Part shown: positions 16,259 to 60,425 of the stretch, in pieces | Layout of the letters: each line of letters begins with the position of its first letter | Numbering within the stretch: the first letter of the stretch is position 1 | Source of the DNA: a virus | DNA: 64,000 nucleotides | IMG/VR virus record: IMGVR_UViG_3300026097_000980 | Coordinates: 1-64,000 of that record | Strand: one strand, 5' to 3' | The notes under the pieces: generated by a model | The model's input: only the letters and a program-made list of their open reading frames with translations | Told to the model about the DNA's origin: nothing | Databases searched by the model: none | Program-made: the position numbers and the translations under genes

Positions 16259-17293
16259 TTATTCTGTCTGAACCAGCTGTATCAAGTTTGAACTTTTAGA
16301 ACAGTTTACTTCCGGTTGGCAATGACAGAAATCTGTTTGGCACGTTGTTGGAATAATGTCAGGATTAAACTTATTCTTAAAATTATCTTCGTAAATATTA
16401 TAAAAATAATCTTTCTGATATAATAGATTACCGCATATACCTTGAATATTTCCTGTCTTTCCTATAAACAGAGTTTCTACTCCAACATTACAAGACCACC
16501 CTTTAAAATTATTATAGCCATTTATTACTAACCAATTTTCTTTAACTTTTTTAGTAAAATTTTTAAAATAGACAGTAGGACCGATGTATTTAGGTTCTTT
16601 AAGTTTTTCAACAAATAAATTGTATAATAATCCAGGATGCCTAGTTTTAGTTTCTAAAAATTTTTTTTGTTCTTCTGAATATTTTATATCAGGATGAAAA
16701 ATAGGTCTGGCATTTATAGACCATCGGTATTTGCTCTTTTTTAAAATATCAATAAGGTTTAGACATTTTTTCCAGCAGTTCGGATCCATGAGGACCAAAC
16801 ACCAAAGTGCTACTCGATTTTTATAGAGTATGTCGCCGACTTTTGAAATATGAGTCGGATCAACCGATTCGTGATGTACACTAATACTTACATGATCTAA
16901 AAATTTACTATTATGCTTCCACCATCTGATAGACCTACTTCCGTTTGTTGTAATACTGATAGAACAATTAAACTTATCTTTAATACTTTTTGAAAACGGA
17001 ATAAGATCTTTCCATAAAGTCGGTTCTCCTCCACCTATGTGAATAATAAATTTTTTCTTGTTTGCATTTTTAGAATAGTAATTTAATAGATGTTCAAAGT
17101 TAGGCAAAATTTTATCTAATTTTGGCCATTGCTGGGTTTTTCCGTTAAAATTATCAGAACAATAAAAACACTTGTAGTTACAGAAATCGCTAAGAAAAAT
17201 TTCAATGCGAAGAGTGTCTTTCGGCATATTTGATTTTATTCTAATTAGCTCATTGTTTTCGCCAGGTATTGTTTGTTTTGTGAATATATGCAT
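16259..17293 (-). CDS. Radical SAM protein with C-terminal Cys-rich (SPASM/twitch-like) domain
   Basis: CNYKCFYC, GGGEPT, TNGS, NFKGWSC...CQTDFCHC. Confidence 0.88.
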   Translation of the reverse strand: MHIFTKQTIPGENNELIRIKSNMPKDTLRIEIFLSDFCNYKCFYCSDNFNGKTQQWPKLDKILPNFEHLLNYYSKNANKKKFIIHIGGGEPTLWKDLIPFSKSIKDKFNCSISITTNGSRSIRWWKHNSKFLDHVSISVHHESVDPTHISKVGDILYKNRVALWCLVLMDPNCWKKCLNLIDILKKSKYRWSINARPIFHPDIKYSEEQKKFLETKTRHPGLLYNLFVEKLKEPKYIGPTVYFKNFTKKVKENWLVINGYNNFKGWSCNVGVETLFIGKTGNIQGICGNLLYQKDYFYNIYEDNFKNKFNPDIIPTTCQTDFCHCQPEVNCSKSSNLIQLVQTE

Positions 17294-34102: not shown

Positions 34103-34420
34103 ATGTTTGGATTTTTAAAGAAACTTTTCGGTTCAGAAGAATCATCGCTCTATACTAAACCAGAAAGCGAAAGCAGGGTAGGCATTGACAAACCCAAAGT
34201 CACTCCTACCATTGAAGAACCAAAAGCAAAACCTGCACAGACAAAACAAGAACAGCCTAAAAAGCGTGGTCGTAAGAAAGCCGGTATTACAAAAACCGAT
34301 CTTAACAAAATGACCAAAGACGAGTTAGAAGCTTACGCTAAGAAGGAACATAAAGTTGATCTTGACAAGCGTAAGAAGAAGGCAGATCTTGTTGAGGAAG
34401 TGTTGAAGCTTGCGAAGTAA
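34103..34420 (+). CDS. Basic protein with C-terminal Rho-N/HeH-like helical motif
   Basis: DLNKMTKDELEAYAK...LDKRKKKADLV; AAGGAG RBS; TAAATA 34074-34079. Confidence 0.7.
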   Translation: MFGFLKKLFGSEESSLYTKPESESRVGIDKPKVTPTIEEPKAKPAQTKQEQPKKRGRKKAGITKTDLNKMTKDELEAYAKKEHKVDLDKRKKKADLVEEVLKLAK

Positions 34421-35426
34421 ATTCTTCGTAGAGCTTCGCGCTCGCTAAGTTTTTCATCTTTGCTTCCACCATAATGTCTGAGTATTCCCAAAACTCCTTT
34501 GCCCACGCATTACAGGCTGTATTCCACATATAGTCTGAGTGGGCACGGAGTTTTTGCTTTTTATATCCCCATTCTAACAGTTCTGACATATCTGGCTTTT
34601 TATCAGTAGGATGAAGATTAAGTAAATCTTCTCTGCTTAATGAGTAATGAATTACAGGACGAACACCGCGCCAGCTGTCTATTATACGCTTATATTGATC
34701 TGATTCGGGTGTAATGTAATGTCCTTCACGGACCCATTCATGATGTATATCCAGCACGAGGGCAAGGTCGTCGGCAAGTTCGAGGCTGGCGTCTGTTCCC
34801 CAGCACATTTCGTCGTTTTCGATTGTGATAATGTTTCGTGCTTCTGACGAGAGTCTTGGGAGGACTTCTTTGATACCTTGTGGCCCTTTTCTACCCGATA
34901 TGTGTACATTGCATTTAAAGTCTTGAAACGATCGACCGTAGCCCATCCATCGTGCCATATCAGCATGATATTCAAACTCCTCGATACTTCTATTTACTAT
35001 ATCTTCACTTTCGCTACTAAGTACAGTAAACTGACCAGGGTGAAAAGATAGACGCACGTCAAGATCGCGAGCAAGATCCCCAACCCTTGCAAACGCTCGT
35101 TCGCAATAGTCGCGCACGTCGCTACGCTTCCAAAAGTAGCTCCAACTGCGTTCAGTATAAACAGGAAGGCAATCACTCCCCAGCCGAACCATTCTAAGCC
35201 CATCGGGCAAACCTCCTACATATTCTATCAGATTGTAATAACTTTGAATGTTATGCTCCATCAACTCCCAAAGACGTTGTTCTGCATCTTCTTGAGTTTG
35301 ACGATTAAGCCATGCAACAGTTGTGCATCGAGTATTGAGTGGACGCTGAATTTCTTCTAGCACTTTCTTTTTCTGATCTTGATCAAGGTGCATGTATTTG
35401 CATGCAAAACCAATACGTTTTTTCAT
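34338..35426 (-). CDS. uvsE: UV damage repair endonuclease UvsE/UVDE
   Basis: RIGFAC, RLGSD, RLSFHPGQF, NVHISG, IENDE, LDIHH, HSDY, DIMVEAK.K. Confidence 0.92.
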   Translation of the reverse strand: MKKRIGFACKYMHLDQDQKKKVLEEIQRPLNTRCTTVAWLNRQTQEDAEQRLWELMEHNIQSYYNLIEYVGGLPDGLRMVRLGSDCLPVYTERSWSYFWKRSDVRDYCERAFARVGDLARDLDVRLSFHPGQFTVLSSESEDIVNRSIEEFEYHADMARWMGYGRSFQDFKCNVHISGRKGPQGIKEVLPRLSSEARNIITIENDEMCWGTDASLELADDLALVLDIHHEWVREGHYITPESDQYKRIIDSWRGVRPVIHYSLSREDLLNLHPTDKKPDMSELLEWGYKKQKLRAHSDYMWNTACNAWAKEFWEYSDIMVEAKMKNLASAKLYEEFTSQASTLPQQDLPSSYACQDQLYVPS

Positions 35427-35438
35427 AGCCATAACATT

Positions 35439-35467
35439 AGTTTACATTGAAAAAACAGGGTTGTCAA
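35439..35467 (-). promoter_or_regulatory. Sigma70-type promoter for uvsE
   Basis: TTGACA-17-TAAACT. Confidence 0.6.
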
Positions 35468-35993
35468 CATAACTAACCCCTATTCCTATTGTTTTTCTGC
35501 TACCGTTTACACTAAACCATCGATGTTCAGTATCGGAAGTATTACGCCAGCATATTAGTCTGTTATGTTTATACGGAAACGATAACGTTATTCCTTCGTT
35601 GTTTCTTGCTTCAAAGTAGCCACCGGGTTTCTGACCTAAGTAAAGCATCATATGATACTTTTTTTCAGGAAGATCGGTATGCCAATCTCTTGCCAGTCGC
35701 ATCTCGTGATCAACATAATCTCTAAATGCAATATGATTCAACCTTGTGGACTTTTCGTATTTGTCGTTAAAAATAATATCTAAAGTTGTAATCAGTTCTT
35801 TCTCTCGTTGAACGTAGTTTACATCGTAAAACTCTTTGAAAACACCATTAAGATCTGGATTTTTTAACTTTCCGCCTTTTACTGGAAAATTATCTCTCAT
35901 TGTGTCGGCTACTACTTGCGGAAGTACATTTTCTATAAGAATCATCGGCCACGGTAAATCAAATTTTGTGTAGGAGTTCTGTAAAATATACAT
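35442..35993 (-). CDS. 2OG-Fe(II) oxygenase-like protein
   Basis: HTD...LYL...H...R facial-triad pattern. Confidence 0.65.
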   Translation of the reverse strand: MYILQNSYTKFDLPWPMILIENVLPQVVADTMRDNFPVKGGKLKNPDLNGVFKEFYDVNYVQREKELITTLDIIFNDKYEKSTRLNHIAFRDYVDHEMRLARDWHTDLPEKKYHMMLYLGQKPGGYFEARNNEGITLSFPYKHNRLICWRNTSDTEHRWFSVNGSRKTIGIGVSYVDNPVFSM

Positions 35994-35994
35994 T

Positions 35995-36690
35995 TCAATG
36001 CCAGTTTTCGATTACAATTTTATCTTTAACTTCGTGTGGTTTAGGCTCACCGTGAAATACCAGTACAGCACAGTGTTTGTGTGGTTGGACATCATCTCTA
36101 ACAGTTTTAAAAGAACGTTTATTCGCTTTATACAGCAATTCACTGCGATCTCTAACTTCCCATTTGTAGCTCTGGATCCATTGATCCGGCCAAAAACAGA
36201 TTTGATTTTTTGCAACCTGCCATATCCAATCTTGATCTCCGTGTAATCTCTGTGCTTGTTTCTTGTCTCTTATAAAATTATCAAAGATATGGTTATGATG
36301 ACCAGCCATCCAGCTCATAATACTGCTATTGAGTACATTCCATTTAGGATTAAACTTTCGATTGAAATCGCGAATACCATAAAATCTGTCTCCGCAGTTG
36401 TCATAGAGTCTGGTAAGTGCTCCGACTATGACCACGTCCAGGTCAAAGTATAACATTCTACCTTCTAGACCTAGATTTTTATCAAATAAATGTACTTTAT
36501 GCCACCACGCTTTTTTATATTTTTGATTTTCTAAAATTAAAAGTTCAACACCTTCAATCGGAGTAGGATCGTCGGTAATACAATAAAATTTATACGGTCC
36601 GGTGATATTTCTCGAAACCATATTTCTTAATCGTTCTACATATTCTATACCGTATAACGATCCTATTCTAACACAGATAACATTTATCAT
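35995..36690 (-). CDS. Glycosyltransferase-like protein (GT-A)
   Basis: WWHK, YFDLDVVI, NSS, GDQDWI, VFHG.PKP; start MINVICV. Confidence 0.75.
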   Translation of the reverse strand: MINVICVRIGSLYGIEYVERLRNMVSRNITGPYKFYCITDDPTPIEGVELLILENQKYKKAWWHKVHLFDKNLGLEGRMLYFDLDVVIVGALTRLYDNCGDRFYGIRDFNRKFNPKWNVLNSSIMSWMAGHHNHIFDNFIRDKKQAQRLHGDQDWIWQVAKNQICFWPDQWIQSYKWEVRDRSELLYKANKRSFKTVRDDVQPHKHCAVLVFHGEPKPHEVKDKIVIENWH

Positions 36691-37274
36691 TAAATTTGTA
36701 ATCTCTTTAATGCTTCTTCGGGTGCTTCCCAATCCCAACGAGATTTCATCGGAAGTGTTTGTTCACTTGGCATTTTACGTTGGGCATCGGTCTTAGCGGT
36801 GTCTTCATCTACTTCTACCATTGCATCGTTGCGTTCGTGCTCATACACGCGAACACGTTCTACATAACAGCGACCTTGTGTAAGTTTGTAGATATAATGA
36901 TTAACATGTTCCCAAATAAACAAACTGCTCATTTCCATACTTACTCCGCTAGGTAACACTCGAAGTGTTCCTAACAATCCTCCGGTGTCTGTTAGCGAAT
37001 CTGGAATATTATTTAATCTTGGATCATCTGCTGGTAATACAGTTACATGATCGAAGTAGTATTCCAAAAATTCTTTCACAGGCTTTAACCCGCCGAACGG
37101 AACAATCCATCCATGCTTGTCAATGTCGCCTGCGAATGTAAATTCCACTGAACGATCGTAACCGTGTACCTGAGCACAGTGTCCGGGTGTACCGTCTTCG
37201 TTTGTATCAAACCATTGTGCATGGCCACATGGTAAATTTTTAAATACTTTAGTTGCTTTTACTTTTATACCCAT
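36690..37274 (-). CDS. queD: 6-carboxy-5,6,7,8-tetrahydropterin synthase / PTPS (T-fold)
   Basis: GHAQ..HCAQVHGY, FGGLK, FDH, VYEH.RN. Confidence 0.85.
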   Translation of the reverse strand: MGIKVKATKVFKNLPCGHAQWFDTNEDGTPGHCAQVHGYDRSVEFTFAGDIDKHGWIVPFGGLKPVKEFLEYYFDHVTVLPADDPRLNNIPDSLTDTGGLLGTLRVLPSGVSMEMSSLFIWEHVNHYIYKLTQGRCYVERVRVYEHERNDAMVEVDEDTAKTDAQRKMPSEQTLPMKSRWDWEAPEEALKRLQI

Positions 37275-37344
37275 CTCTTGCCTCCTGGTGAGTAAGTTTG
37301 ACAGGCGGCAGAATATTTAATGAGGGATGACGCCTAAGACCTCT
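37275..37344 (-). ncRNA. preQ1-I-like pseudoknot riboswitch candidate (5' UTR of queD)
   Basis: AGAGG-UCUUAGGCGUCAUC-CCUC-AUUAAAUAUU-CUGCCGCCUG; loop AGGCG pairs with CGCCU, which alternatively pairs with the SD region. Confidence 0.65.
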
Positions 37345-37350
37345 ACGTTA

Positions 37351-37379
37351 ATTATAAAGCATATTTAACATATTTGCAA
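37351..37379 (-). promoter_or_regulatory. Sigma70-type promoter for the queD leader
   Basis: TTGCAA-17-TATAAT; predicted +1 at or near 37344. Confidence 0.7.
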
Positions 37380-37996
37380 TAGGTATTATTAAAATCTTGT
37401 ATAGGCATAAACTCGCTGTTGCGAAACTGCCATTCTTTTGGCATATTCCAACGAGGGTGATTGACTATAATAAATTTTTTAGATTTGTACAGTTTGATTA
37501 CTTTTGATATTTGATAAGTCCAGTAGCTAGGATCAACCGGTCTAGAACCTGGATCTGCATAATTTTTGGTTCCTTTGAATAGATTGTTAACTTTGCCTCT
37601 ATTACTGTAAAGATCAAACCCTAACAAAAATATTTCATCTGCATTTATTTCTTCTTGTGCCGCTAATAACACTGCATAAGGCCCACTACCCCAGTGAAAC
37701 GGATCGTCTGGACGTTTTGAAGGAGTATAAGGAACATCTGGTACAGTATGTATTCTTTTGTCTTTCATTACTTTTCTGTAATAATGATACCATCGGTCTC
37801 TGACATAAATTTTACTGTGTTCTGCATTTAAATGATCGATAGCTTCTTCGACCATTCTTTTGTCACAGCAAACTAGATGGTCTACATAATCGTATCTGAA
37901 TATTGCATTACAGCCTATTATGGTTTCGAAGTTTAAATCTGATAAAAGGATACCTGCGCGACTTTCGCCGTTTCCGGCTACAAGAATTTGATTCAC
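37352..37996 (-). CDS. Rossmann-like protein of the MptE / sialyltransferase-like group (GTG start)
   Basis: VAGNGESR, IGCNA, GSG..A, IFLLGFD; AGAGGA RBS. Confidence 0.55.
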   Translation of the reverse strand: MNQILVAGNGESRAGILLSDLNFETIIGCNAIFRYDYVDHLVCCDKRMVEEAIDHLNAEHSKIYVRDRWYHYYRKVMKDKRIHTVPDVPYTPSKRPDDPFHWGSGPYAVLLAAQEEINADEIFLLGFDLYSNRGKVNNLFKGTKNYADPGSRPVDPSYWTYQISKVIKLYKSKKFIIVNHPRWNMPKEWQFRNSEFMPIQDFNNTYCKYVKYAL

Positions 37997-37997
37997 A

Positions 37998-38873
37998 CTA
38001 TCCTCTTTCTTTAATTTCCCCGAACGGATACCAGCTTCCAGGAGTTCCAGCTCGTAGGCAAACCCATCCGACATTTCTTCCTACACTTGGATTTGCATTC
38101 CAGATAATGTCTCCGACTGTGTGCGTTCCTGTCTTAGGTGGTGCTTCAGCATATTTGTGTAAATGATTATGAATTCTAACAGGACCGTTAACGTGAAGAT
38201 CAACATCTGGGTCTGAATTTTTAACACCAATAGCAAGTTTTCCGTTTAGGTTAACCTTGATAGGATTAGTGTTAACATTTCCTAGCTGAATATCACCGTT
38301 TGCTGAAACAGAAATTCGCGGAGTGTCGTCTGTTACAATATGAAAATCCGAACTGGCAAATGTACCTACCATTCCTGATAGATCTTCGGAAGTACCTAAC
38401 ATAACTTCCACGCCCATTTCTGCAATAGAAAGAGCCGCGTTCGGTTCGTCTGTGCCTAGTCCTAATCTGTCAACGGATGCATTGTAAAACAAATATTGAT
38501 TGATGTTTAACCCGCCGTCGACTGTGAGTCCTTTTAATCTTCCTAGTTCTCTTAGATTACTTTTGGTAATGCTATTTCCTAAGCTATCTTCTGTAACAAC
38601 AGGAACATTATTAATGCTGTAGTGTCGATCTTTTGCTAGATCTAAGTTTTCTGTACTGAAGAATCTGTCAGGTTTTGCAGATAAAACTAACTGTTTAGTA
38701 TAACCGTCGCCACTAAACAATAAACCTTTTCCGTAGTTAGGTTGTTTCTTCTTGCTTTTGAATTCAAGATGATTAAGATCTGACCAAACTACATCTGTGG
38801 CTTCTTTGTTGACACTAAGCTCAGTGAGTGCCTGGGATATAATATCAATCGGATTAGGAGTTTCTTTGCTCAT
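37998..38873 (-). CDS. Putative virion fibre-like protein
   Basis: RLGLGT..P..AL, LAIGV..P..DLHVNG, GDIIWN..P...GWVC...G.PG.W; TATAAATA upstream. Confidence 0.55.
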   Translation of the reverse strand: MSKETPNPIDIISQALTELSVNKEATDVVWSDLNHLEFKSKKKQPNYGKGLLFSGDGYTKQLVLSAKPDRFFSTENLDLAKDRHYSINNVPVVTEDSLGNSITKSNLRELGRLKGLTVDGGLNINQYLFYNASVDRLGLGTDEPNAALSIAEMGVEVMLGTSEDLSGMVGTFASSDFHIVTDDTPRISVSANGDIQLGNVNTNPIKVNLNGKLAIGVKNSDPDVDLHVNGPVRIHNHLHKYAEAPPKTGTHTVGDIIWNANPSVGRNVGWVCLRAGTPGSWYPFGEIKERG

Positions 38874-49389: not shown

Positions 49390-51381
49390 ATGCAAAGATA
49401 CAAAAAAGAAATTGCCAGAGTAACATTAGTCGAACCCGAATCCGGCGACTACTTAGATCTTTACTTCAGGCTTTATGACATTTCTATCACAAACAAATGG
49501 ATTCATAATTTTAAACAACTAAAATCAGGACCGCATAGCTTCAGAGAAAAAAATGTATTTCTAAGGTCTTACAATCGTAGCCTATTGGATGATATTAACG
49601 AGTGTATAGAAAAAATTAATAACTTTTATGACAGACCTTTAGAATCTATAAACAATCTAACCGAAGAATCGTTAAACTATCTACACGAATGTTATGAAAT
49701 TTACGGTAAAAGACTAAATGAACATTTAGAAAAAAGATGGTGGGATAGCGCATACAAAAAGATTTCCGTAAACGACCCGGAAGCAATGGTCTGGCCTGGT
49801 AGATCATTTAACGAAGATATGCATTTTTCGTTTATCAAATTAAATGAACTCATTCATAAATCGGAATTTGCCGACGAAAGACGTTCTCCAGGAGCAATTG
49901 TTCTCGGCAGTTTCAATAAAAGAACAGACCATATTCTAGAAAGAGACGATTATTTAACAATAACTCCTTTTCTGAATTTCGGAGATTTCTGTCTTGGTTA
50001 CAATACTCTCGGAAAAAATCTTCAACACATAATATTAGATAATGACGAAGATGCTGTGGCCAGAAATGCAATTGTTCCGCAACAAACATGGTCCGATGAG
50101 TTTTATATCCATCTAAAGTCCGACGAAACAAAACCTGATCATCTAATAGGTTATAAAGAAATGTGGGACAATTTAAAAATCAAAGGATTCCAGTTCGGCA
50201 ACTTTATTGCTAATAAAGAAGGATATATCAAACTAGGGGAAATGATCCCTGAGCAAAGAGCGAAACTCTACAAAAACGATCACACTCTTATTGATTTTAA
50301 AAAATACACAGACCTACAAGATATAACATTGATTTCAACCGATGAATACAAAACAGGAGTTCGTTTCCCGGAGTTCAAGAAACCTTATAAGAAACAAGGA
50401 AAAGAGATCGTAGCTGTAGATACTGATAATGTTGTAATGATTACATGGATATTAAATAATATTTGCACCTACAGTTGTAGATATTGTCCTCCAAATTTAC
50501 ACAACGGAAAAAACTACAGATACGAGTGGGAAGATATAGAGCCATTTGTGTCCCATTTACTTAAATTTTATCGAGGAAAGAACATTGAATTTAATTTAAG
50601 TGGTGGCGAACCGACACTTAGTCCCTTTTTTCCTATGCTGGTTAAAAAAATTTACGATAGCGGAGCGTATGTAGGTATAACCACAAATCTCGCAAGAAGT
50701 ACTAGATTTATAAAAGATAATTTTAAATATTTGAAATTTGCGTGTTGTAGCTTCCATCCTTATTACGAATTTCAAGACGAAAAATATAAAGAGTTTTTAG
50801 AGAAAATTAAGGAATGTGCAAACCATTGCCATACAACAGTCCGGGTTATGATGGACCCGTTACACTGGGATCAAACAGTGGAATTTGTAGAAACTCTAAA
50901 AAAATTAAAGTGCTGTAAAGTAGAAGTAGTATATATTGATAATCAGTACGGCAGTACACACAAACAGCTGATTGACATAAGTTATACGCCAGCCCAAATA
51001 GAATATATCAAAAACTTCGAACCTTTTCAAAAATTTGATGCAAAATGGAGTAAATCTGAATTATGGTCGCCAATGCCTACGAAAGGTGATGTAATTTTTT
51101 CCGACGGTTCTAGAGAAGAGTTGGGAACTGCACAAAAATATATTAATAACGGTCAGGCAAACTTTTTCAATTACTCGTGCGATATAGGTAAGAATAGTTT
51201 GTTTATTGGCCCAAATGGTGAGGTCAGAAAAGGAAATTGTTTGGTCGGAGGAAAAATTGGAACTGTTGAGAATTGGAGAGGAATAGACTGGAACGATCTC
51301 AAGCAATCAATAATTTGTAATTCATTGTGCTGCCATTGCGGCGCAGATGTTGTAATCTCCAAAAGGAAACGCAATGCGTAA
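49390..51381 (+). CDS. Radical SAM protein with ~340-aa N-terminal extra domain
   Basis: CTYSCRYC, SGGEPT, SFH, C-terminal CNSLCCHC.AD. Confidence 0.85.
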   Translation: MQRYKKEIARVTLVEPESGDYLDLYFRLYDISITNKWIHNFKQLKSGPHSFREKNVFLRSYNRSLLDDINECIEKINNFYDRPLESINNLTEESLNYLHECYEIYGKRLNEHLEKRWWDSAYKKISVNDPEAMVWPGRSFNEDMHFSFIKLNELIHKSEFADERRSPGAIVLGSFNKRTDHILERDDYLTITPFLNFGDFCLGYNTLGKNLQHIILDNDEDAVARNAIVPQQTWSDEFYIHLKSDETKPDHLIGYKEMWDNLKIKGFQFGNFIANKEGYIKLGEMIPEQRAKLYKNDHTLIDFKKYTDLQDITLISTDEYKTGVRFPEFKKPYKKQGKEIVAVDTDNVVMITWILNNICTYSCRYCPPNLHNGKNYRYEWEDIEPFVSHLLKFYRGKNIEFNLSGGEPTLSPFFPMLVKKIYDSGAYVGITTNLARSTRFIKDNFKYLKFACCSFHPYYEFQDEKYKEFLEKIKECANHCHTTVRVMMDPLHWDQTVEFVETLKKLKCCKVEVVYIDNQYGSTHKQLIDISYTPAQIEYIKNFEPFQKFDAKWSKSELWSPMPTKGDVIFSDGSREELGTAQKYINNGQANFFNYSCDIGKNSLFIGPNGEVRKGNCLVGGKIGTVENWRGIDWNDLKQSIICNSLCCHCGADVVISKRKRNA

Positions 51382-52078
51382 AATTTTAAATTTTGGTTGT
51401 AGTCATACCAACGGTGCAGAGATTGACGAACCGTGGTCGGGAGAAAGACCCGATCTAGCTTATGGCGCTGTTCTTTCAAAGATGATAGATTACAAAGTCG
51501 AGCAGATATGCGGGAATGGTTGGAGTAACCAATGGATAATTAAAAATGCGTTCAATGCGTGTTTAGAATACATTGATAATAAAGATAAGCCGTTTATTCT
51601 CGTCGGATGGACATCAGTTGAACGAATGCCGTTGCAGTTTGCTGGTCAAGGCACAGTTTATCATGCAACAACAAATTTACCCCCAGAACCTAAATATTAT
51701 CCTGTTAGGAATTATGAAAGAATACACAGTACACTTTGGGGTTCTTCTGTTAACAAACCTGAAATGACTGAAATGCGATTATCTAATATATTAGGGTTCC
51801 AATCTTGGTTGAAAGAACATAATTTTCCATTTTTATTTTTCTGGGCCGTTAATAGTGCTGATACTAAAGTGCTAGAAAAATATAGCATGTGTTTTGATCC
51901 TTGTAGATTTTATGAACCAATTCAACACGATGAGTCTTACTGGAGATACTATCTTAATAATTACTATGATAAGTCTAAAAGATGGGCAAAACATGCACCT
52001 GCGGAGTTCCATAGGCACTGGGCACATAAGCTTTATACGTATATTTGCAAACACAAGTTGCTGGATCTAAATGTTTAG
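51374..52078 (+). CDS. SGNH/GDSL-like protein
   Basis: FGCSHT, G.SN, VGWTS..R, C-terminal H..H. Confidence 0.65.
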   Translation: MRKILNFGCSHTNGAEIDEPWSGERPDLAYGAVLSKMIDYKVEQICGNGWSNQWIIKNAFNACLEYIDNKDKPFILVGWTSVERMPLQFAGQGTVYHATTNLPPEPKYYPVRNYERIHSTLWGSSVNKPEMTEMRLSNILGFQSWLKEHNFPFLFFWAVNSADTKVLEKYSMCFDPCRFYEPIQHDESYWRYYLNNYYDKSKRWAKHAPAEFHRHWAHKLYTYICKHKLLDLNV

Positions 52079-53567
52079 CATATCGAAAGGAACATTAAAT
52101 TTAGATCATCCTGCTTGTAAAAGCCAGATTGATTTCTTTGCGGGACAAAATTTTAACAAAGTGAATATTGATAACTTTTGTTCAGGCCACTACGATCATA
52201 GAATTGCCAAGCACTTTTATTTTTCAGTCCACCCGGCAGATCTCCCAATTACAGTTCTTGTATACGGAGAACAAATCCTAAATATACATCCCGGAACTTC
52301 TAGGGTGCTTGCATATTATCTATCTGATAAGAAAAAAATTCCTGCAATATTTTTACAGGTTGGTAGCATGAAAGAATTAGAATTTGCAGAAAATGTTCAA
52401 TCTATTACTGAAAAAAACGAACTTACCTTGGTCAATCAAAACGACAAGCCGAATAAACATTTTTGGCAAATAAATGTTATTGACCAAGAATACTATAAAA
52501 AGATCGAAAACGAAAAACAATTATCAAAAAAGTTTAAAGAGTTTTTTTATAGTTGTTTAGATCAAAACTCTGTAGATACTTTAAAAAAAGAATATCTAAA
52601 AAATAATCAGAAAAAATTCTGGAAACTGTGTTCACAAATTGCTAGAGAAAATTTTAACAAAAAGTTAGCAATTAAACCTCAAAGAACCGGAGCGTGGCAA
52701 TACAACAGTGATTTTCATTGGAATGTATTTTTTAAAAACTATGATGTTTTTTTGGTAGAGATGTTACCGAATGCAATGAGTGAATTCATAGCCCATCCTA
52801 ATGAGATAGAAAGTCAAAGTCGCTGGATTAAAAAATACAAAGATACTGAAAGAAAATTTCCTGAAATTTTTATAAACTACGAGCTAGACGAGTTTGTCAA
52901 AGATTACACAGAAATTTACGATTGTTTAAAATCGGAAAATCATAAAATAGCCGATTTGGTAGACAACAAGCTCTGGATGAACTGTAAAGGATATGAATAT
53001 ATAAAAACCATACAAAGTGTTTATAAACATGGTGGCATTAATTATAGTTCTAGCATACTAACAAACATCTGCGGAGAACGAAACTTTAAGTATCATCCTG
53101 GAAGGCATTTATCGTTTGCCAAGCGATTTATAGGACAACCGGATATTCATTTTCTAACAATTAAAAAGCAGGATCGCGAATGGTTAGATCAGTATGACAA
53201 AGTTAAAATTATAACCCAAATAGAAACCAAGAACCAAATTTTAGAAAACATGCCTAAAGAAATGACAGATGTCAGCACATGGCTTCAGGGAACTTTTCCT
53301 GTATATACGTGGCCGTTTGTGAACGGAGAAATTAAACTGCCTACTACTGAATGGGGAGATTTAAAAGATGACTGCGGCTATACTGTGATAACTAAATCTG
53401 GAAAAGAAGAAAATATGAAAGTGTTTACTGAATACGCAAAAATTTTAAAAAACACTGATTTACAGAATCTGTATAAAGGAAAAAAGAAAAACCATAAAAA
53501 GCTAAATGAAAGATATCTGGGGTTCCTGTTGAACAATCAAGAAGGTGACGAATTTGAAAAAGGTTAA
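52071..53567 (+). CDS. Hypothetical protein with two HPG-R motifs (ParB/Srx-like?)
   Basis: IHPGTSR and YHPGRH. Confidence 0.55.
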   Translation: MFSISKGTLNLDHPACKSQIDFFAGQNFNKVNIDNFCSGHYDHRIAKHFYFSVHPADLPITVLVYGEQILNIHPGTSRVLAYYLSDKKKIPAIFLQVGSMKELEFAENVQSITEKNELTLVNQNDKPNKHFWQINVIDQEYYKKIENEKQLSKKFKEFFYSCLDQNSVDTLKKEYLKNNQKKFWKLCSQIARENFNKKLAIKPQRTGAWQYNSDFHWNVFFKNYDVFLVEMLPNAMSEFIAHPNEIESQSRWIKKYKDTERKFPEIFINYELDEFVKDYTEIYDCLKSENHKIADLVDNKLWMNCKGYEYIKTIQSVYKHGGINYSSSILTNICGERNFKYHPGRHLSFAKRFIGQPDIHFLTIKKQDREWLDQYDKVKIITQIETKNQILENMPKEMTDVSTWLQGTFPVYTWPFVNGEIKLPTTEWGDLKDDCGYTVITKSGKEENMKVFTEYAKILKNTDLQNLYKGKKKNHKKLNERYLGFLLNNQEGDEFEKG

Positions 53568-54519
53568 GTTTGAAAGGGTTAACTTAGAATTAGTCGGCGG
53601 CTGCAATTATACCTGCCAGATGTGTCCTCAAAGTACCGGCAGAGGAAAAGAGTGGACTAAAAAACTGCCTTTCGAATTATTCGAAAATATTTTAGATCAA
53701 TTAGACGGTAATCCATTAATTGGACTACACGGTTCAGGAGAACCTACATTGATTAAAGATCTTCCTAGATACGTTGAAATCTGTAAAAAAAGAAATTATA
53801 AAGTGTTCATTAATACCAACGGTTTTAAATTGCACGGAAAATTTATGGAAGACGTAATTAATGCAGGAATAGATTGGATAAGGTTTAGTGTTGTAGGATA
53901 TAATTCTGAGACTTATAAAGATTGGATGGCGGTAGACAACTTTAATAAAATTGTAGAAAACACCATAGAGACTTCCGAGTATATCAAAATAGTTAATTCG
54001 CACTGCAAACTTTTAAGTTATCATTTAATACTTGACTCTAACAACATAGATTATGAGATTGATCAATATAGAAAAAACTATATAGAGAAAACCGGTACAC
54101 ACGGGTACATATGGAAAATGCATAACTGGAGTGGTAATTACCAGCCGTTATATTTAAGAGATCCGGCAAAGCGTAAAACCTGCGGCAGACCGTGGGCACC
54201 TGATATCACAATCAGGGCCGGAGGCATAGATAAGTTACACGGTGCTGTTGTTCCTTGTTGTCAAACAATGGGTCCTCCTAACGAAGCAAAAAGTGTTCTC
54301 GGACACGTTGAAACTGAAACAATTGACGAAATATGGAACGGACAATTATATCAAGAACTGCGTGATGCACATTCCAAAGGTAATTTTGATTCAATTGACT
54401 ATTGTAAAGACTGCGATCTTTTATATCAAGAAGATGAAAGTTTAATATGGAGTAATGCACCGGGAGCTTTTGACGGCAAGTTAATAGGAACTGACGTAAA
54501 TCTAAAGGATTTTATATGA
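53545..54519 (+). CDS. Radical SAM/SPASM protein (start may be TTG 53554)
   Basis: CNYTCQMC, GSGEPT, CGRPW..VPCC..CKDC. Confidence 0.88.
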   Translation: MTNLKKVKFERVNLELVGGCNYTCQMCPQSTGRGKEWTKKLPFELFENILDQLDGNPLIGLHGSGEPTLIKDLPRYVEICKKRNYKVFINTNGFKLHGKFMEDVINAGIDWIRFSVVGYNSETYKDWMAVDNFNKIVENTIETSEYIKIVNSHCKLLSYHLILDSNNIDYEIDQYRKNYIEKTGTHGYIWKMHNWSGNYQPLYLRDPAKRKTCGRPWAPDITIRAGGIDKLHGAVVPCCQTMGPPNEAKSVLGHVETETIDEIWNGQLYQELRDAHSKGNFDSIDYCKDCDLLYQEDESLIWSNAPGAFDGKLIGTDVNLKDFI

Positions 54520-55517
54520 CAGATTTTTCAAAAATTCCTTTTGAAGATATAATCAAAGTCGGACAGAGAACATTGCTAGATCGTCCATTATTTACTGTTA
54601 GTTGGATTCTTGGTAGATTCTGCAACTACAATTGTAGTTACTGCTGGCCATATGCCAGAAGCTCAACTCCGGATCATTTCGATCTCGATGTTTATCTAAA
54701 AGGAATTGACGAAATTAAACGGCAAGCGAGAAAGAACGGATTCACTGAATTTCACTTTAGTTTTAGTGGAGGTGAGCCCACTGCATACAAACAGTTTAAT
54801 AAAGTGCTAAAACATTATTCTGAAGATGCAGACCCTGAATACCAAAGCTTGCACATGACCACAAACCTTTCTCCTGCAAAAAAATGGTGGGAGAAGTTTG
54901 TAACAGACACATATAAATTACAGAGAAAAAGTATAACAGCAAGTTTTCATGCCGAACATGCAGATGAAACAGAGTTCGGTGATAAATGTCTTATGCTTAT
55001 GGATGCAGGAGTATTTGTAACTATAAATCAAGTTATGGTTCCTGAACTGTTTGACGAATATTATGAAAGATGCCAACGGTTTTTTGCTAGAGGAATCAAT
55101 GTAACGTTAAAGCCTCAAAGCGATCCAACAGCAAGTTATATAGTAGGCGGATATACAGAATATCAGAGAAAGATACTGCAAGAAAATTTTCCGCAAAAAA
55201 TTCCATCGAAATATAAGAGTGATATACCTCTATTACAAATCGAGTTAGAAGATAAATTTTCTAATAAGTTTTACTTAGATCAAGCAGAACGATTTAACGC
55301 TTTTGATTTTAATAAATTCCAAGGTTGGTCTTGTAATTCTGGTTATCAAAGCTGTATAATTAGAAGTAATGAAGTAAAAAGAAGCTATTCATGTCACGAT
55401 GAATCGTTAGGAACACTGACAGACGGATTTGAGTTGTTTGCTAATTCAAAAGTTTGTATTACTCCGTCGTGTGTTAGCAGTGCAGATAGTAAAATACCTA
55501 AGGTTAAACATGTATAA
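54516..55517 (+). CDS. Radical SAM protein
   Basis: CNYNCSYC, SGGEPT, SFH, NKFQGWSC. Confidence 0.88.
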   Translation: MTDFSKIPFEDIIKVGQRTLLDRPLFTVSWILGRFCNYNCSYCWPYARSSTPDHFDLDVYLKGIDEIKRQARKNGFTEFHFSFSGGEPTAYKQFNKVLKHYSEDADPEYQSLHMTTNLSPAKKWWEKFVTDTYKLQRKSITASFHAEHADETEFGDKCLMLMDAGVFVTINQVMVPELFDEYYERCQRFFARGINVTLKPQSDPTASYIVGGYTEYQRKILQENFPQKIPSKYKSDIPLLQIELEDKFSNKFYLDQAERFNAFDFNKFQGWSCNSGYQSCIIRSNEVKRSYSCHDESLGTLTDGFELFANSKVCITPSCVSSADSKIPKVKHV

Positions 55518-56499
55518 ACTAAATGAAATTAAAGAAATACATTTAGAAACAACATCTAAGTGTCAAGCAAGATGTCCTATGTGTCCTCGCCGTTTAAATG
55601 GAGGATCTATTAATCCATTAATAACGCTAGATGAAATTTATCTGGACGATTTTAAAAAATGGTTTCCGGTACATTTTCTTCAAAATTTAGACCGACTGTT
55701 TATGTGTGGAAATCTAGGTGATCCGGTTGTTGCTCAAGATACACTTGAAATTTTTCAATACTTAAGAGAGATTAATCCGGATATTCAATTGAGCATGCAT
55801 ACTAACGGAAGCGCAAGAACCAAAGACTGGTGGCACAAATTAGCACTTGCTGATGTTGAAGTAACCTTTGGCATCGACGGGCTAGAGGATACACACAGTC
55901 TTTACCGCATAAACACAGACTGGGCTACTATTATTAAGAATGCACAATCTTTCATTGATGCAGGCGGGAAAGCAAATTGGCACATGTTAGTGTTTAAACA
56001 TAACGAACATCAGATTGAAAACTGCAAGCAATTAAGTTTAGAGTATGGATTCAAATACTTTAGTATAAAACACACCAGTAGGTTTAAAGAAAATAAGTTG
56101 CACGTGATAGACGATGCTGGTAAAACTGCTTATAAAATTTATCCTACCCAAAAAAGTCTAGACATGATACCTAAGGTAACACAATTCTATACCGATCAAA
56201 GTCCGTGTATTAAGTGTAAGGCTAAACAACAAAAACAAATTTATGTTTCAGCAAACGGAAATATAGCTCCGTGTTGTTGGCTAGATATGCAATACAAATT
56301 ACATATACAAGATACCAGGATAGACTATATGGATAAAATAGAACAGTTTCCTAACCTTAGAGAAATGTCAATTGAAGATATATTTTCCTCTGATTATTTT
56401 AAAAGCATTGAAAAAACTTGGGCAGATGATCCGTTGTTAGAATGTTCAAAACAATGCGGTAGTTTCGATAAATTACAGGAGCAATTCGTTGAAAGTTGA
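55510..56499 (+). CDS. Radical SAM/SPASM-like protein (start MYKLNE)
   Basis: CQARCPMC, GNLGDP, TNGS, PCC, CSKQC. Confidence 0.88.
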   Translation: MYKLNEIKEIHLETTSKCQARCPMCPRRLNGGSINPLITLDEIYLDDFKKWFPVHFLQNLDRLFMCGNLGDPVVAQDTLEIFQYLREINPDIQLSMHTNGSARTKDWWHKLALADVEVTFGIDGLEDTHSLYRINTDWATIIKNAQSFIDAGGKANWHMLVFKHNEHQIENCKQLSLEYGFKYFSIKHTSRFKENKLHVIDDAGKTAYKIYPTQKSLDMIPKVTQFYTDQSPCIKCKAKQQKQIYVSANGNIAPCCWLDMQYKLHIQDTRIDYMDKIEQFPNLREMSIEDIFSSDYFKSIEKTWADDPLLECSKQCGSFDKLQEQFVES

Positions 56500-57094
56500 T
56501 ATACAAGATGTTCTGTTTTGGATGGACGCTATTCGTAACAGCGATGATCGTTATCGCACACTTGAAAGTTTTTGGAAAGGGCAGGTTAATAGTAAAATTT
56601 GGCTGATTGAAAATCTGCAGAAATTTCAAGATCAGAAATGGGAACACATTGTTATTCACGGTGGCTGGAACGGTGTATTAGCCAGCCTTATTTTCAACAG
56701 CGGCATAGAAGTAGATAGAATAACCAGTGTTGATATAGACCCCGGCTGTGAAGAAACAGCATACACTATTAACAAGAGATACGAAATGACGGGCAGATTT
56801 CGTGCGGTAACCGCTGATATGTGCAAATACTCTGAACCTGCTGATGTTATCATTAACACCAGCTGTGAACATATTACTCAACCACAGTATTATGATTGGC
56901 TACACAACCAAAACGATGACAGTCTTTATGTTTTACAAAGTAATAACTATTTTGATTTGAATGAGCATATAAACTGTAGTGAAGATTTAGTACAGTTTGT
57001 TCAAAAGTCCAAACTTCGGGTTGTATTTTCAGATAGATTACAACTGCCTAAATACGACCGTTACATGATTATAGGAAAGAAAAATGACAGATAA
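56489..57094 (+). CDS. Class I SAM-dependent methyltransferase-like protein
   Basis: IHGGWNG, SVDID, ADM, INTSCEH. Confidence 0.7.
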   Translation: MKVDIQDVLFWMDAIRNSDDRYRTLESFWKGQVNSKIWLIENLQKFQDQKWEHIVIHGGWNGVLASLIFNSGIEVDRITSVDIDPGCEETAYTINKRYEMTGRFRAVTADMCKYSEPADVIINTSCEHITQPQYYDWLHNQNDDSLYVLQSNNYFDLNEHINCSEDLVQFVQKSKLRVVFSDRLQLPKYDRYMIIGKKNDR

Positions 57095-58496
57095 ATTTTG
57101 GTATAACCCTAAGGACACTGAGTTAGGAAAATATCAAAGAGAAATAGAAAGTGTAGCCGGAACACCTTCATTTTGTATATTGCCGTGGATACATTTTGCA
57201 ACCCGTCCGAATGGTGATATGAGATTATGCTGTTCTGCAAATGCAAGTGGAGCAGGCAATGATCATGAAGTAGGACTTGTAAGAATGGAACATGGCCGCC
57301 CTGCTAACTTCGGGCGAGAAACTCCTATGGAAGCATGGAATAATGAATACATGCGCAGTGTGCGCACCACAATGCTTAACGGAGAAATACCTAACAGTTG
57401 CCGCAAATGTTTTGAAGAAGAAAAAGTGGGTGTTGTTAGCAAACGTATATGGGAAACTGGAACTTGGCACAGAGATGGGGTAGATATTCCAGAACTTATT
57501 AGACAAACAACCGAAGACGGCATCGTTCCTGAAGAACTGGTATATTTAGATCTACGACTAGGGCATACCTGCAATATTAAATGTGTTATGTGTTCACCTC
57601 ATGACAGTTCTCGCTGGGTTAAAGATTGGGAACAACTTATTCCAGTTTTACAAGTTGACAATGTAAAACAACAGATGCAGTGGGATCGATCCGAGTTTAA
57701 CAACAAGTGGCACGAGAAAGATACATTTTGGGAAGAAATGTATCGTCAAATACCAAATCTAAAACAGGTATATTTTGCCGGCGGTGAACCTCTAATGATC
57801 AAAGAACACAAAGAGTTCATTGAAGAAATAGTACGTCAGGGATATCAAGACAAGATTTTGTTAAGATATAACTCCAATGGACTATTAGTAGATGAAGATT
57901 TAATTAAGTTATGGAGCAAGTTTAAAAAGGTTAAGTTTGCAGTAAGTATGGATGCAGTTTATGAAAGAGATGAATATATACGCTATCCTACAGATTGGAA
58001 TACTGTTGAAAAAACTCTGAGATTGTTAGACGATACTCCGGATAATATACAAACAAGTTTAGCAACAGCAATACAAATATTCAATGTAAAACACCTACCT
58101 GACTTTATGAAGTGGAAGGTAGAAAGCGGATTTAAAAAACTTAATCTAGGTAACGTACCTGGCGGAGTACAAATGGGCGGCGGCTTAGTAAACATGCATT
58201 TATTGTACATTCCTACATTCTTAAGCATACAAATACTACCAAAAGAAGACAAGCAAGAAGTTCGAGAACTGTATATGGATTTTAAAGACTGGCTCTGGAA
58301 AAACTATAGACAGGATGACGATTTCTGGAAAGTCAATCCTTATGGATGGCGTAGATGGGAAGCAGTAATGAACCATATGGATGCAACTGACAATAGCGAT
58401 CAACTACCAGGATTTAAAGAATATGTGAATAAATTAGATGCTATCCGCGGACTGAATGCAAAATCAGTGTTTCCGGAAATTGCTCATCTTCTCTAA
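57084..58496 (+). CDS. Radical SAM protein with N-terminal twitch/SPASM-like domain
   Basis: CILPW..LCC..CRKC precedes CNIKCVMC, AGGEPL. Confidence 0.88.
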   Translation: MTDKFWYNPKDTELGKYQREIESVAGTPSFCILPWIHFATRPNGDMRLCCSANASGAGNDHEVGLVRMEHGRPANFGRETPMEAWNNEYMRSVRTTMLNGEIPNSCRKCFEEEKVGVVSKRIWETGTWHRDGVDIPELIRQTTEDGIVPEELVYLDLRLGHTCNIKCVMCSPHDSSRWVKDWEQLIPVLQVDNVKQQMQWDRSEFNNKWHEKDTFWEEMYRQIPNLKQVYFAGGEPLMIKEHKEFIEEIVRQGYQDKILLRYNSNGLLVDEDLIKLWSKFKKVKFAVSMDAVYERDEYIRYPTDWNTVEKTLRLLDDTPDNIQTSLATAIQIFNVKHLPDFMKWKVESGFKKLNLGNVPGGVQMGGGLVNMHLLYIPTFLSIQILPKEDKQEVRELYMDFKDWLWKNYRQDDDFWKVNPYGWRRWEAVMNHMDATDNSDQLPGFKEYVNKLDAIRGLNAKSVFPEIAHLL

Positions 58497-59542
58497 ACAA
58501 GCGTTTGAAAAACTTCCCAATCTTTTGCCTTTGGCACACACATTCCGCAACCGCATCTATCATTAGGACAAACAATTGTTTTATCTTTGTGTTCATGTGC
58601 ATACTGTAAGATTGCGTCAGTGTCACTGAGATTTCCTATGGGGCCCCGACCTTCCGAGTGCAGTGCTTTACAAGTTTGGTGATGATAAACTTCGCCAGTC
58701 TGCTGATCTATATGTAAAAAGTAACGATTAACACTGCAAAACCACCCTTTGAAATGAGTATCGATATGGGTAATGTCTTGCCACTGGCCGTTTTTTATAC
58801 CTTTCATACACCTACCTCCACAGCAGGTTCGTCCTAATTCAGTGCCCTGCTTATCAGTTTCATTGGGCGCCGAGATTCCTAGGTAATTAAAATACCATAC
58901 TTGCTGTTCTGGAGAGTAATCATGGCTGGTTCTGCGAGGTGTACCGTCGGTGTCTAAAAACCATCCTTGTCTTGATATGTTACCGTCACCGATCGGTCGG
59001 GGCTGATGCTTTATACCTAGTTCTTTTAACTCGTTACATACCTCTACACATTCATCAAAATAATCAACATGCATCATTACGTTGACTTGTAACCAAATAC
59101 CTTTTTGATATAATAGTCTTATATTTTCCAAAACCTGTTTCTTCAGTTTATCATCTGCTTCGGCATGATAACTCACAGTTACGCCTTCAAATATTTCTGC
59201 AATTCTTTCTGTGTTCTTCGGATGCCACGCTCCGTTAGTAGTTAAACTTAACCTAAACCTGTCTTCGTTATTCTTAATGTATTCAGCAAAATCCCAAAAC
59301 GCAGGATTAACGGTGGGCTCACCTCCAGTAAAATTAATATTCACTAAATGACTATATATCTTAGTGTATTCTTTTACGAACTCAAATGTTTTCATTAGTG
59401 TTTCGTAAGGCTGTGGCTTACTATAATTATCGTGTCTTGTCGCTTCGCAGTATGAGCAATCATAATTACAACGTCTTCCCGTGTCCCAGGTAACCATAAT
59501 TCTTTCTGGATTAGTCAAATCAACCGCATCTATCTTAATCAT
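58493..59542 (-). CDS. Radical SAM protein (start MIKIDAV)
   Basis: CNYDCSYC, TGGEPT, SYH, FKGWFC, CPNDRCGCGMC. Confidence 0.88.
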   Translation of the reverse strand: MIKIDAVDLTNPERIMVTWDTGRRCNYDCSYCEATRHDNYSKPQPYETLMKTFEFVKEYTKIYSHLVNINFTGGEPTVNPAFWDFAEYIKNNEDRFRLSLTTNGAWHPKNTERIAEIFEGVTVSYHAEADDKLKKQVLENIRLLYQKGIWLQVNVMMHVDYFDECVEVCNELKELGIKHQPRPIGDGNISRQGWFLDTDGTPRRTSHDYSPEQQVWYFNYLGISAPNETDKQGTELGRTCCGGRCMKGIKNGQWQDITHIDTHFKGWFCSVNRYFLHIDQQTGEVYHHQTCKALHSEGRGPIGNLSDTDAILQYAHEHKDKTIVCPNDRCGCGMCVPKAKDWEVFQTLV

Positions 59543-60425
59543 GGGTTTCCTTTGAAAGTGGAATATCGGCCGCACATGTGCACCAATTTCTAGTGCAAAC
59601 TATCCATTCTCTAGGTGGCTCAAAACTGCCGTTATAAATATTTCCCAAGCTACCGCCCACTCTGCAAGTAGCGCGATGTACTTCGCCATCCCAGTTAATC
59701 ATCAAGCTTTCAATACCAGCAGAGCACTTCCACCCATTAAATCGATTTAGATGATTTTTAATTATATCGTTGGCATGATAAGTTTTACCCGTATCGTCTA
59801 CACAGTTAGGACGAACTGTAGAGTTTGTAGAAAGTATCCACTCTAAATCATTGCCTTCGTATCTTAAGTCGTCAAACGTGTCGTGATCGCCTTGTGTCCA
59901 CCGTATTCTTCTAACAGCCACGGGTATGTTTTCTTCGTCAAGTTCTTCGTATGCTCGTTTAACAAGATCCATGTGTTCATGATGAGCCATTAAATTAACC
60001 TGAATAGGTTTACCGAACCATTTGCCTACCATGATAATGTTTTGTAAAGAACGTCTCCAGAGATTGTTATCGAAGTGTAAACTGAATACATAATGATTAA
60101 CAGGTTGTTCGCAATACCATCTGCCATCACGAGTTCCGTTTGTTGTTATGTTTATCCAGTCAACTCTTTGATTTAAGTGATCTAACAGTTCTTCGATATT
60201 AGGGTGAACACAAGGCTCTCCACCAGTAAGGCTAACGCGAATAGGTTTGTCTAATTCACAGAGCGCATCAACGGCATCGGTCAACAATTTAATATTTGTG
60301 TGAGGAGAAACATTGTCGTGAATTTCCGAAGGACAGTATGCACAGTCTAAGTTACAACGTTTTCCAATATTCCATTCTACTTTGATAGAATTTTGATGAT
60401 CATAGATACTGGTAAGGCTACGCAT
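59535..60425 (-). CDS. Radical SAM protein
   Basis: CNLDCAYC, TGGEPC, SLH, FNGWKC, CTRNWCTCAAD. Confidence 0.88.
   Translation of the reverse strand: MRSLTSIYDHQNSIKVEWNIGKRCNLDCAYCPSEIHDNVSPHTNIKLLTDAVDALCELDKPIRVSLTGGEPCVHPNIEELLDHLNQRVDWINITTNGTRDGRWYCEQPVNHYVFSLHFDNNLWRRSLQNIIMVGKWFGKPIQVNLMAHHEHMDLVKRAYEELDEENIPVAVRRIRWTQGDHDTFDDLRYEGNDLEWILSTNSTVRPNCVDDTGKTYHANDIIKNHLNRFNGWKCSAGIESLMINWDGEVHRATCRVGGSLGNIYNGSFEPPREWIVCTRNWCTCAADIPLSKETHD

Follow-up and report, generated by a model that had tools for sequence, protein, structure and literature searches.

What kind of RNA lies between the promoter and the queD-like gene of this uncultured phage, and how might it control the gene? The locus is found on the minus strand of the window, the 64,000-nucleotide stretch analysed here (positions 1 to 64,000 of IMG/VR record IMGVR_UViG_3300026097_000980). 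The leader, as read from the window sequence, is 77 bases long. The initial annotation took it for a phage preQ1-I-like riboswitch wired as a translational ON switch. Judged by sequence comparison, the queD leader is a member of a large and so far uncatalogued family of cis-regulatory RNA pseudoknots, absent from Rfam 15.

The best sigma-70-like site of the scanned 2 kb (36500-38500) is TTGCAA-17-TATAAT, with a match of 10/12. The ORF upstream (37352-38074) ends in a TAA stop (37354-37352) that falls within the TATAAT of this site. Transcription is predicted to begin at an inferred position of about 37344, adjoining P1, and this start is well supported by the sequence. The elements of the leader and gene are as follows.

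37374..37379, minus strand: -35-like hexamer TTGCAA, 10/12 sigma-70 match together with the -10 hexamer
37351..37356, minus strand: -10 hexamer TATAAT, with a spacer of 17 bases to TTGCAA
37340..37343, minus strand: P1 5′ strand GAGG, pairing with 37322-37325
37336..37339, minus strand: L1, UCUU; in the family the first base is variable, followed by a conserved C and U
37328..37335, minus strand: P2 5′ strand AGGCG-U-CA; the first five bases pair, the U faces C as a mismatch, and the last two form C-G and A-U
37335-37331 with 37307-37303, minus strand: P2 core, AGGCG paired with CGCCU
37326..37327, minus strand: L2, a U and the invariant C37326, the C lying directly 5′ of the P1 3′ strand
37322..37325, minus strand: P1 3′ strand CCUC
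37311..37321, minus strand: L3, A UUAAAUA UUC, an A-rich part with an invariant A.A.A followed by a conserved YUC
37303..37310, minus strand: P2 3′ strand UG-C-CGCCU
37300..37305, minus strand: CCUGUC, the last P2 bases plus GUC, which pairs with GAUGGG (37275-37270) over the start codon
37290..37300, minus strand: conserved linker CAAACUUACUC, with CUU and CUC as possible partners of AAG and GAG in the ribosome-binding region
37270..37287, minus strand: ribosome-binding region, comprising CAGGAGGCA (37287-37279), the Shine-Dalgarno (SD) sequence GGAGG (37285-37281), ATG (37274-37272) and GAUGGG (37275-37270)
36690..37274, minus strand: queD-like gene of the PTPS/QueD family, 194 aa, with a Cx3HGY motif

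The promoter, its predicted start and P1 (GAGG/CCUC, with U37339 directly after the 5′ strand and C37326 directly before the 3′ strand) all lie where the initial annotation placed them, as do the AGGCG and CGCCU strands of P2. The gene product matches PF01242 (E 2e-15) and phrog_2389 (E 9e-31), which bears out its identification as PTPS/QueD-like. Its score lies below the NCBIfam QueD cut-off (30 vs 89 bits).

Folded as a single sequence, the leader is no better than chance (MFE -18.8 vs shuffles -17.65 +/- 3.0, z -0.38). The window alone shows nothing beyond chance; the decisive evidence on the leader comes from comparison with its relatives, which were reached by three independent routes. 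A QueD protein search in IMG/VR (route Q) gave 39 loci, 30 of which contain the leader. Route A used a pattern on the 3′ half only, from the end of L3 to the conserved CAAACUURCUC; more than 118 contigs matched and 80 were fetched. The full element is present in 79 of these 80, and a QueD-like ORF follows it in the 71 loci with a callable complete start and ORF; in the loci beyond these 71 the ORF was not called or is cut at the contig end. Identity of these proteins to the one in the window is often as low as 28-38%. Route B used a pattern on the GAGG-type core with UCCG, which matched at least 120 further contigs. All 80 of the loci fetched carry the element (the parser accepted 79, and the one exception, L231, has a P2 strand of 6 bases as its sole difference) and all 80 have a QueD homologue after it, with quite different downstream platforms.

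Across the three routes the element is found in 189 of 200 fetched phage loci, as about 140 distinct sequences. In the searches run, all true matches are immediately followed by a QueD-like gene, in each case from an uncultured phage, and the associated QueD proteins are often just 28-40% identical. The 155.5-kb record that contains the window holds a single copy. In one locus (L094, IMGVR_UViG_3300005805_001180) the 3′ half of the leader is kept and the P1 5′ strand is lost, which may represent a decayed or recombined copy. The predicted promoter is also recurrent in the family: a sigma-70 site of at least 10/12 precedes the element in 71 of 147 distinct upstream regions, 26 of them perfect, vs 1/147 in shuffled controls. 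The -10 hexamer mostly ends 7-9 bases ahead of the first G of P1.

A DNA search of cultured phages returned no match to the leader, and the leader is missing from seven cultured relatives with a QueD-like gene (pf16, RHph_I1_18, ACP17, X1, R26L, Phosso and Moby). That these phages manage queD with no such leader counts against the proposed riboswitch. Among cellular genome contigs, the 3′-half pattern, which covers the main platform type only, gave 36 matches vs about 50 expected by chance on our own estimate, and none had P1 or the CCCNC element upstream. A scan of the whole window with all 4227 Rfam families yielded none that reaches its gathering score; a weak RpsF-leader match to the opposite strand is attributed to chance, as is one to sR16. 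The motif is not described in the literature searched, where the Seurat genome note merely cites a review.

Both helices of the pseudoknot are maintained by compensating changes. Within the sets collected without a P1 constraint, P1 occurs in five such forms (GAGG/CCUC, GUGG/CCAC, GCGG/CCGC, UCGG/CCGA and GUCG/CGAC), and family-wide it contains 4-5 pairs. In alignment A1, 98.9% of cells pair vs 88.2% in shuffles (0/500 as high) and 35-59% when the partners are slid. P2 was scored in a fixed register with no fitting, the five bases before UCNNC being set against the five bases after YUCYGN. Its 63 strand combinations form a mean of 3.73 pairs of 5 vs 2.21 +/- 0.16 for permuted partners (0/2000 as high), and slid registers give 1.3-2.4. 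Each of the three inner pairs occurs as four or five pair types. The covariation check proposed for phage queD leaders therefore comes out in favour of P1 and P2 alike, beyond every permutation or shuffle, and the pseudoknot is real by this measure. An alternative partner for the P1 5′ strand, CUUACU, was rejected, as P1 varies with no matching changes there.

P2 extends further than was first drawn. L2 position 3 pairs with the fourth base of YUCYGN in every distinct sequence, 80 of which have A-U and 59 G-C; this R-Y pair adjoins an invariant C-G pair. The count on alignment A1 is in agreement (98.9% paired vs 88.2% in shuffles, 0/500), with a covariation score of 0.286 vs 0.086. A mutual-information scan ranks exactly these P2-extension contacts at the top. 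As drawn from the aligned sequences, P2 is a helix of 7-8 layers. Five variable pairs come first and are followed by the U.C mismatch, the invariant C-G and the covarying R-Y. Because the helix extends into the supposed L2, that loop is left with two bases, the second being the invariant C37326, which stacks against P1. An earlier reservation, that the linker is longer than canonical, is resolved by the two further P2 pairs, which account for the length. A second reservation had been the presence of a late-promoter-like TAAATA hexamer. This stretch is the conserved A-rich part of L3 and not a promoter; a T4-type late promoter inside L3 was rejected, as TATAAATA occurs in just 11 distinct leaders and the window has ATTAAATA. 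Within L3, the form AUAUAAA (not UUAAAUA) accompanies a C-G second pair of P1 in 31 of 32 distinct sequences. This link, also returned by the mutual-information scan, may reflect either a minor-groove triple between L3 and P1 or shared ancestry.

A chance resemblance with no functional RNA behind it, which would suit the shuffle-like fold of the single sequence, is already refuted by the covariation of P1, P2 and the P2 extension beyond every permutation and shuffle run, and is given practically no weight.

The resemblance to preQ1-I (RF00522) is one of layout. Like the preQ1-I aptamers of B. subtilis queC, T. tengcongensis and E. coli yhhQ (types I-III), the leader forms a small H-type pseudoknot, with a P1 of about 5 pairs closing with G-C and a loop-to-tail P2; both helices covary. 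It also shares an unpaired C 5′ of the P1 3′ strand, an A-rich L3 starting (U)AUAAA, and a link to the 7-deazaguanine pathway. In preQ1-I, a highly conserved L2 cytidine next to the P1 3′ strand serves as the specificity base (PMC10622847). The equivalent position is occupied here: C37326 is invariant in 25 leaders collected by QueD homology and in 79 of 80 route A loci, where the pattern left out that half.

Three other features of the class are absent. The conserved L1 uridine right after P1, which reads the ligand edge in preQ1-I (PMC10622847), has no counterpart beside P1 in the leader family, as the first L1 base is A in 82, U in 40 and C in 17 of 139 sequences; the next two bases (C, U) are conserved. 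Whereas preQ1-I has 4-5 conserved adenines directly before the P2 3′ strand (PMC10622847), the leader has YUC instead of this poly-A tract, with the A.A.A pattern at least three bases further 5′. The class is further characterised by a short P2, the 3′ strand of which contains or abuts the SD (PMC10622847), and by action as an OFF switch. In the leader family the 7-8 layers of P2 absorb most of ‘L2’, and the SD starts a median of 16 bases beyond P2. The P2 3′ strand, acting as an anti-start or anti-SD strand, would give ON and not OFF regulation. Unlike preQ1-I, the family has been found in phage contigs only and on queD-like genes only.

The covariance model agrees with this separation. The Rfam cmsearch, which had been suggested as a check, does not place the leader in RF00522: the score is 8.4 bits (E 7.5-8.1) vs a threshold of 39 bits, and the match ranks sixth of seven chance-level matches in its genome. 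In the records of five relatives the sole match has 12.9 bits vs the same threshold. The consensus aligns over model positions 6-32 only, covering P1, the loop end UC and AUAAA.

An ordinary preQ1-I riboswitch that binds preQ1 or preQ0 and represses queD is therefore a poor account of the locus. It can draw on the RF00522 consensus, to which P1, the C preceding the P1 3′ strand and the first part of L3, AUAAA, can be aligned, and on a gene from a preQ0 pathway family. Against it stand the scores of the window and the five relatives, a first L1 base that may be A, U or C, YUC rather than adenines before P2, and a P2 of 7-8 layers, not 3-4 pairs. The usual OFF mechanism is also unavailable, because the SD, a median of 16 bases past P2, is not part of it. 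This explanation is considered very improbable. The likeness noted in the initial annotation holds for the layout and for a pseudoknot on a queD-like gene, but of the three features that contact the ligand, two are lacking. The leader family resembles the preQ1-I fold and is probably descended from it or convergent on it, yet is no member of the class.

The next question is how the pseudoknot could act on translation. In the window the P2 3′ strand has a second possible partner in the ribosome-binding region, and the two folds are mutually exclusive, as had been suggested. The 3′ strand UGCCGCCUG (37310-37302) pairs 8/9 with CAGGAGGCA (37287-37279) on the minus strand, at -11.0 kcal/mol. This anti-SD helix exists in the window as claimed but is not conserved; it recurs only in L033. 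It was rejected as a family feature, as it depends on the P2 of the window itself and the P2 3′ strands of other members misfit the SD.

The feature shared more widely is pairing over the start codon. In 51 of the 55 main-group combinations of strand and start codon, a run of 4-7 contiguous pairs can form between the P2 3′ end with its RUC and the G, the AUG and codon 2. In the window this start-codon helix is CCUGUC/GAUGGG, with 7 contiguous pairs. Together with CUU/AAG and CUC/GAG over the SD, the start-codon hairpin reaches -9.0 kcal/mol in all. The alternatives in the window (-9 to -11 kcal/mol) are thus similar in energy to the predicted P1 (-3.4 kcal/mol) plus P2 (-7.7 kcal/mol) duplexes. 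The short CUU/AAG and CUC/GAG helices show no compensating changes. Two strictly linked haplotypes are seen, CUUACUC with GGAGGCAAGAG and CUUGCUC with GGAGACUAGAG; they were rejected as support for a helix, as the changes are non-compensatory in any helix drawn. In other subgroups, the P2 3′ strand includes part of an anti-SD segment (ACUCC or CCUC) or is immediately preceded by CUCC. Most subgroups thus have bases common to P2 and an anti-start or anti-SD helix.

The accessibility of the ribosome-binding site (RBS) was estimated from nested-fold thermodynamics, which cannot model the knot itself. The unpaired probabilities of the RBS obtained in this way are as follows.

Free fold: main group 0.32; other subgroups 0.47; window 0.18
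P2 3′ strand blocked: main group 0.42; other subgroups 0.58; window 0.51
Equal-sized control blocks: main group 0.33; other subgroups 0.49-0.51; window 0.25-0.31
After shuffling of the c+b′ strand: main group 0.34; other subgroups 0.50

Blocking of the P2 3′ strand raises the RBS value by more than 0.1 in 67 of 139 sequences. The best partner of the RBS uses at least three bases of the P2 3′ strand in 64/139 sequences, made up of 47/83 in the main group and 17/56 in the other subgroups. Shuffling of the c+b′ strand leaves RBS pairing almost the same (0.32 vs 0.34 in the main group). This counts against the ON reading, though the test is a weak one that reflects composition: a pyrimidine-rich strand pairs with the purine-rich RBS in almost any order. 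In these nested-fold calculations, the effect of blocking the P2 3′ strand is specific but modest. The ON logic put forward earlier is plausible as the best reading of these folds, clear in the window and with moderate support across the family.

The same aptamer could instead act with OFF or some other logic, by stacking of the start-codon helix on P2 or through control of RNA decay. Feedback repression is usual for biosynthetic genes, and ON control of such a gene by the end product of its own pathway would be odd. In the subgroup with CUCC just 5′ of the P2 3′ strand, moreover, the two helices share no bases. The competing helices do share 2-4 bases in the main group and in two other subgroups, and no terminator is present. 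If the fold is preQ1-I-like, the segment 5′ of the P2 3′ strand would lie at the P1/P2 junction and could not form an A-form helix as well. On balance, OFF or other logic is regarded as improbable.

Whether a small molecule is sensed at all is a further question. A real knot could function with no such ligand, as an mRNA stabiliser, as a constitutive or temperature-dependent tuner of translation, or as the operator of a phage or host protein. The predicted transcript begins with the element, which is in keeping with these roles, as is the modest size of the family-wide thermodynamic switch effect. However, the invariant unpaired C at the P1/P2 junction, with invariant pyrimidines around it, looks like a ligand pocket. 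The element is also tied to one enzyme family across very different phages and platforms, a pattern characteristic of metabolite riboswitches; a general stability element would not be expected to show it. A ligand-free role is accordingly judged unlikely, though of the alternatives to a ligand-sensing ON switch it keeps the most weight.

The genes around the motif bear on the identity of a ligand. No other 7-deazaguanine gene is located near queD in the window, and searches for TGT/DpdA, QueC, FolE, pf16-type QueE and GTP cyclohydrolase gave nothing in the 155.5-kb record, which is estimated to represent about 42% of the genome. Among 188 motif loci, a QueE homologue is found on the same strand in 46 and downstream of the motif in 38 of these 46 (overall median +848 bases). 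FolE is nearby in 23 of the 188, and QueC and DpdA are near none of them, these counts being taken from short flanks with few query proteins. From the neighbour-gene counts, the regulated unit would be queD or queD-queE, which would end at CPH4 or CDG and not at preQ1. A ligand other than preQ1 is a serious possibility because the unit would end at CPH4 or CDG, the logic appears to be ON and the pocket is changed.

Other features of the genes were recorded alongside. In bacterial QueD the motif is Cx3HGH. The Cx3HGY form is present in 180 of 182 leader-linked QueD-like proteins and in 7/7 cultured phages that have no leader (taken together, the QueD ORFs of the window, L008-L246, L047, L048 and L333-L337), and HGY in place of HGH was for this reason rejected as a marker of the leader. 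After queD, at 34338-36738 on the minus strand, are a glycosyltransferase-like ORF (phrog_1962), a weak endonuclease V-like ORF and a UvdE UV-endonuclease (PF03851). Eight adjacent Radical_SAM ORFs, four of which also have SPASM, lie at 49390-61686 and, in the longer record, up to about 68.9 kb, with another match at 16859-17194. The 155-kb record has 11 radical-SAM matches, a density unusual for a phage.

The favoured account is that the leader is probably a riboswitch-like pseudoknot aptamer with a fold related to that of preQ1-I, which responds to a guanine-faced ligand and acts as a translational ON switch for queD. The knot would form the aptamer, with a 7-deazaguanine, pterin or purine held at the P1/P2 junction through the invariant C. 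In the ligand-free state, the P2 3′ strand would pair with the start-codon and SD region. Stabilisation of the knot by the ligand would then release the ribosome-binding site and turn on translation of queD, and the queE that follows queD in about a quarter of the loci may be switched on with it. A more specific version can be offered tentatively, as a possibility of clearly lower standing: a phage-only riboswitch class with the preQ1-I fold, a rebuilt pocket and a ligand other than preQ1, giving feed-forward ON control of queD(-queE). In such a pocket, pyrimidines would substitute for the uridine of L1 and the adenines of L3. Candidate ligands are dihydroneopterin triphosphate (the substrate of QueD), another pterin, CDG or preQ0, and guanine.

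Several known systems provide points of comparison. The preQ1-II and preQ1-III riboswitches are likewise pseudoknotted aptamers of the same pathway with translational control. They are OFF switches that sequester the SD, and they differ from the leader in their larger, distinct folds, which gave no match in the Rfam scans. The logic proposed here is closer to that of the add adenine riboswitch of Vibrio vulnificus, a bacterial purine riboswitch that acts as a translational ON switch. In both, the bound aptamer would keep back a strand which, when free, covers the SD and start codon, and a single pyrimidine in a pocket lined with pyrimidines would recognise the ligand by Watson-Crick pairing. 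The add aptamer is unlike the leader in being a three-way junction, with no sequence likeness.

To our knowledge, reported phage riboswitches are copies of bacterial classes. Riboswitches have been called rare in phages, and the copies of the glutamine riboswitch in marine myophages provide a precedent in T4-like aquatic phages (PMC9004378). These represent a known bacterial class that was borrowed, whereas the scan made gave no bacterial counterpart of the leader family.

More than 180 phage contigs, drawn from two pattern scans and the QueD-homology search, share this strongly covarying pseudoknot of 45 bases. Its small size puts the core within immediate reach of in-line probing, ITC and crystallography, and the leader is a compact candidate ON switch for synthetic biology. 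If a ligand is bound, the family would constitute a new class or subclass within the preQ1-I fold, one in which the pocket is altered and regulation runs the other way. If this is true, phages would be controlling 7-deazaguanine or pterin metabolism in the course of infection through direct sensing of a metabolite.
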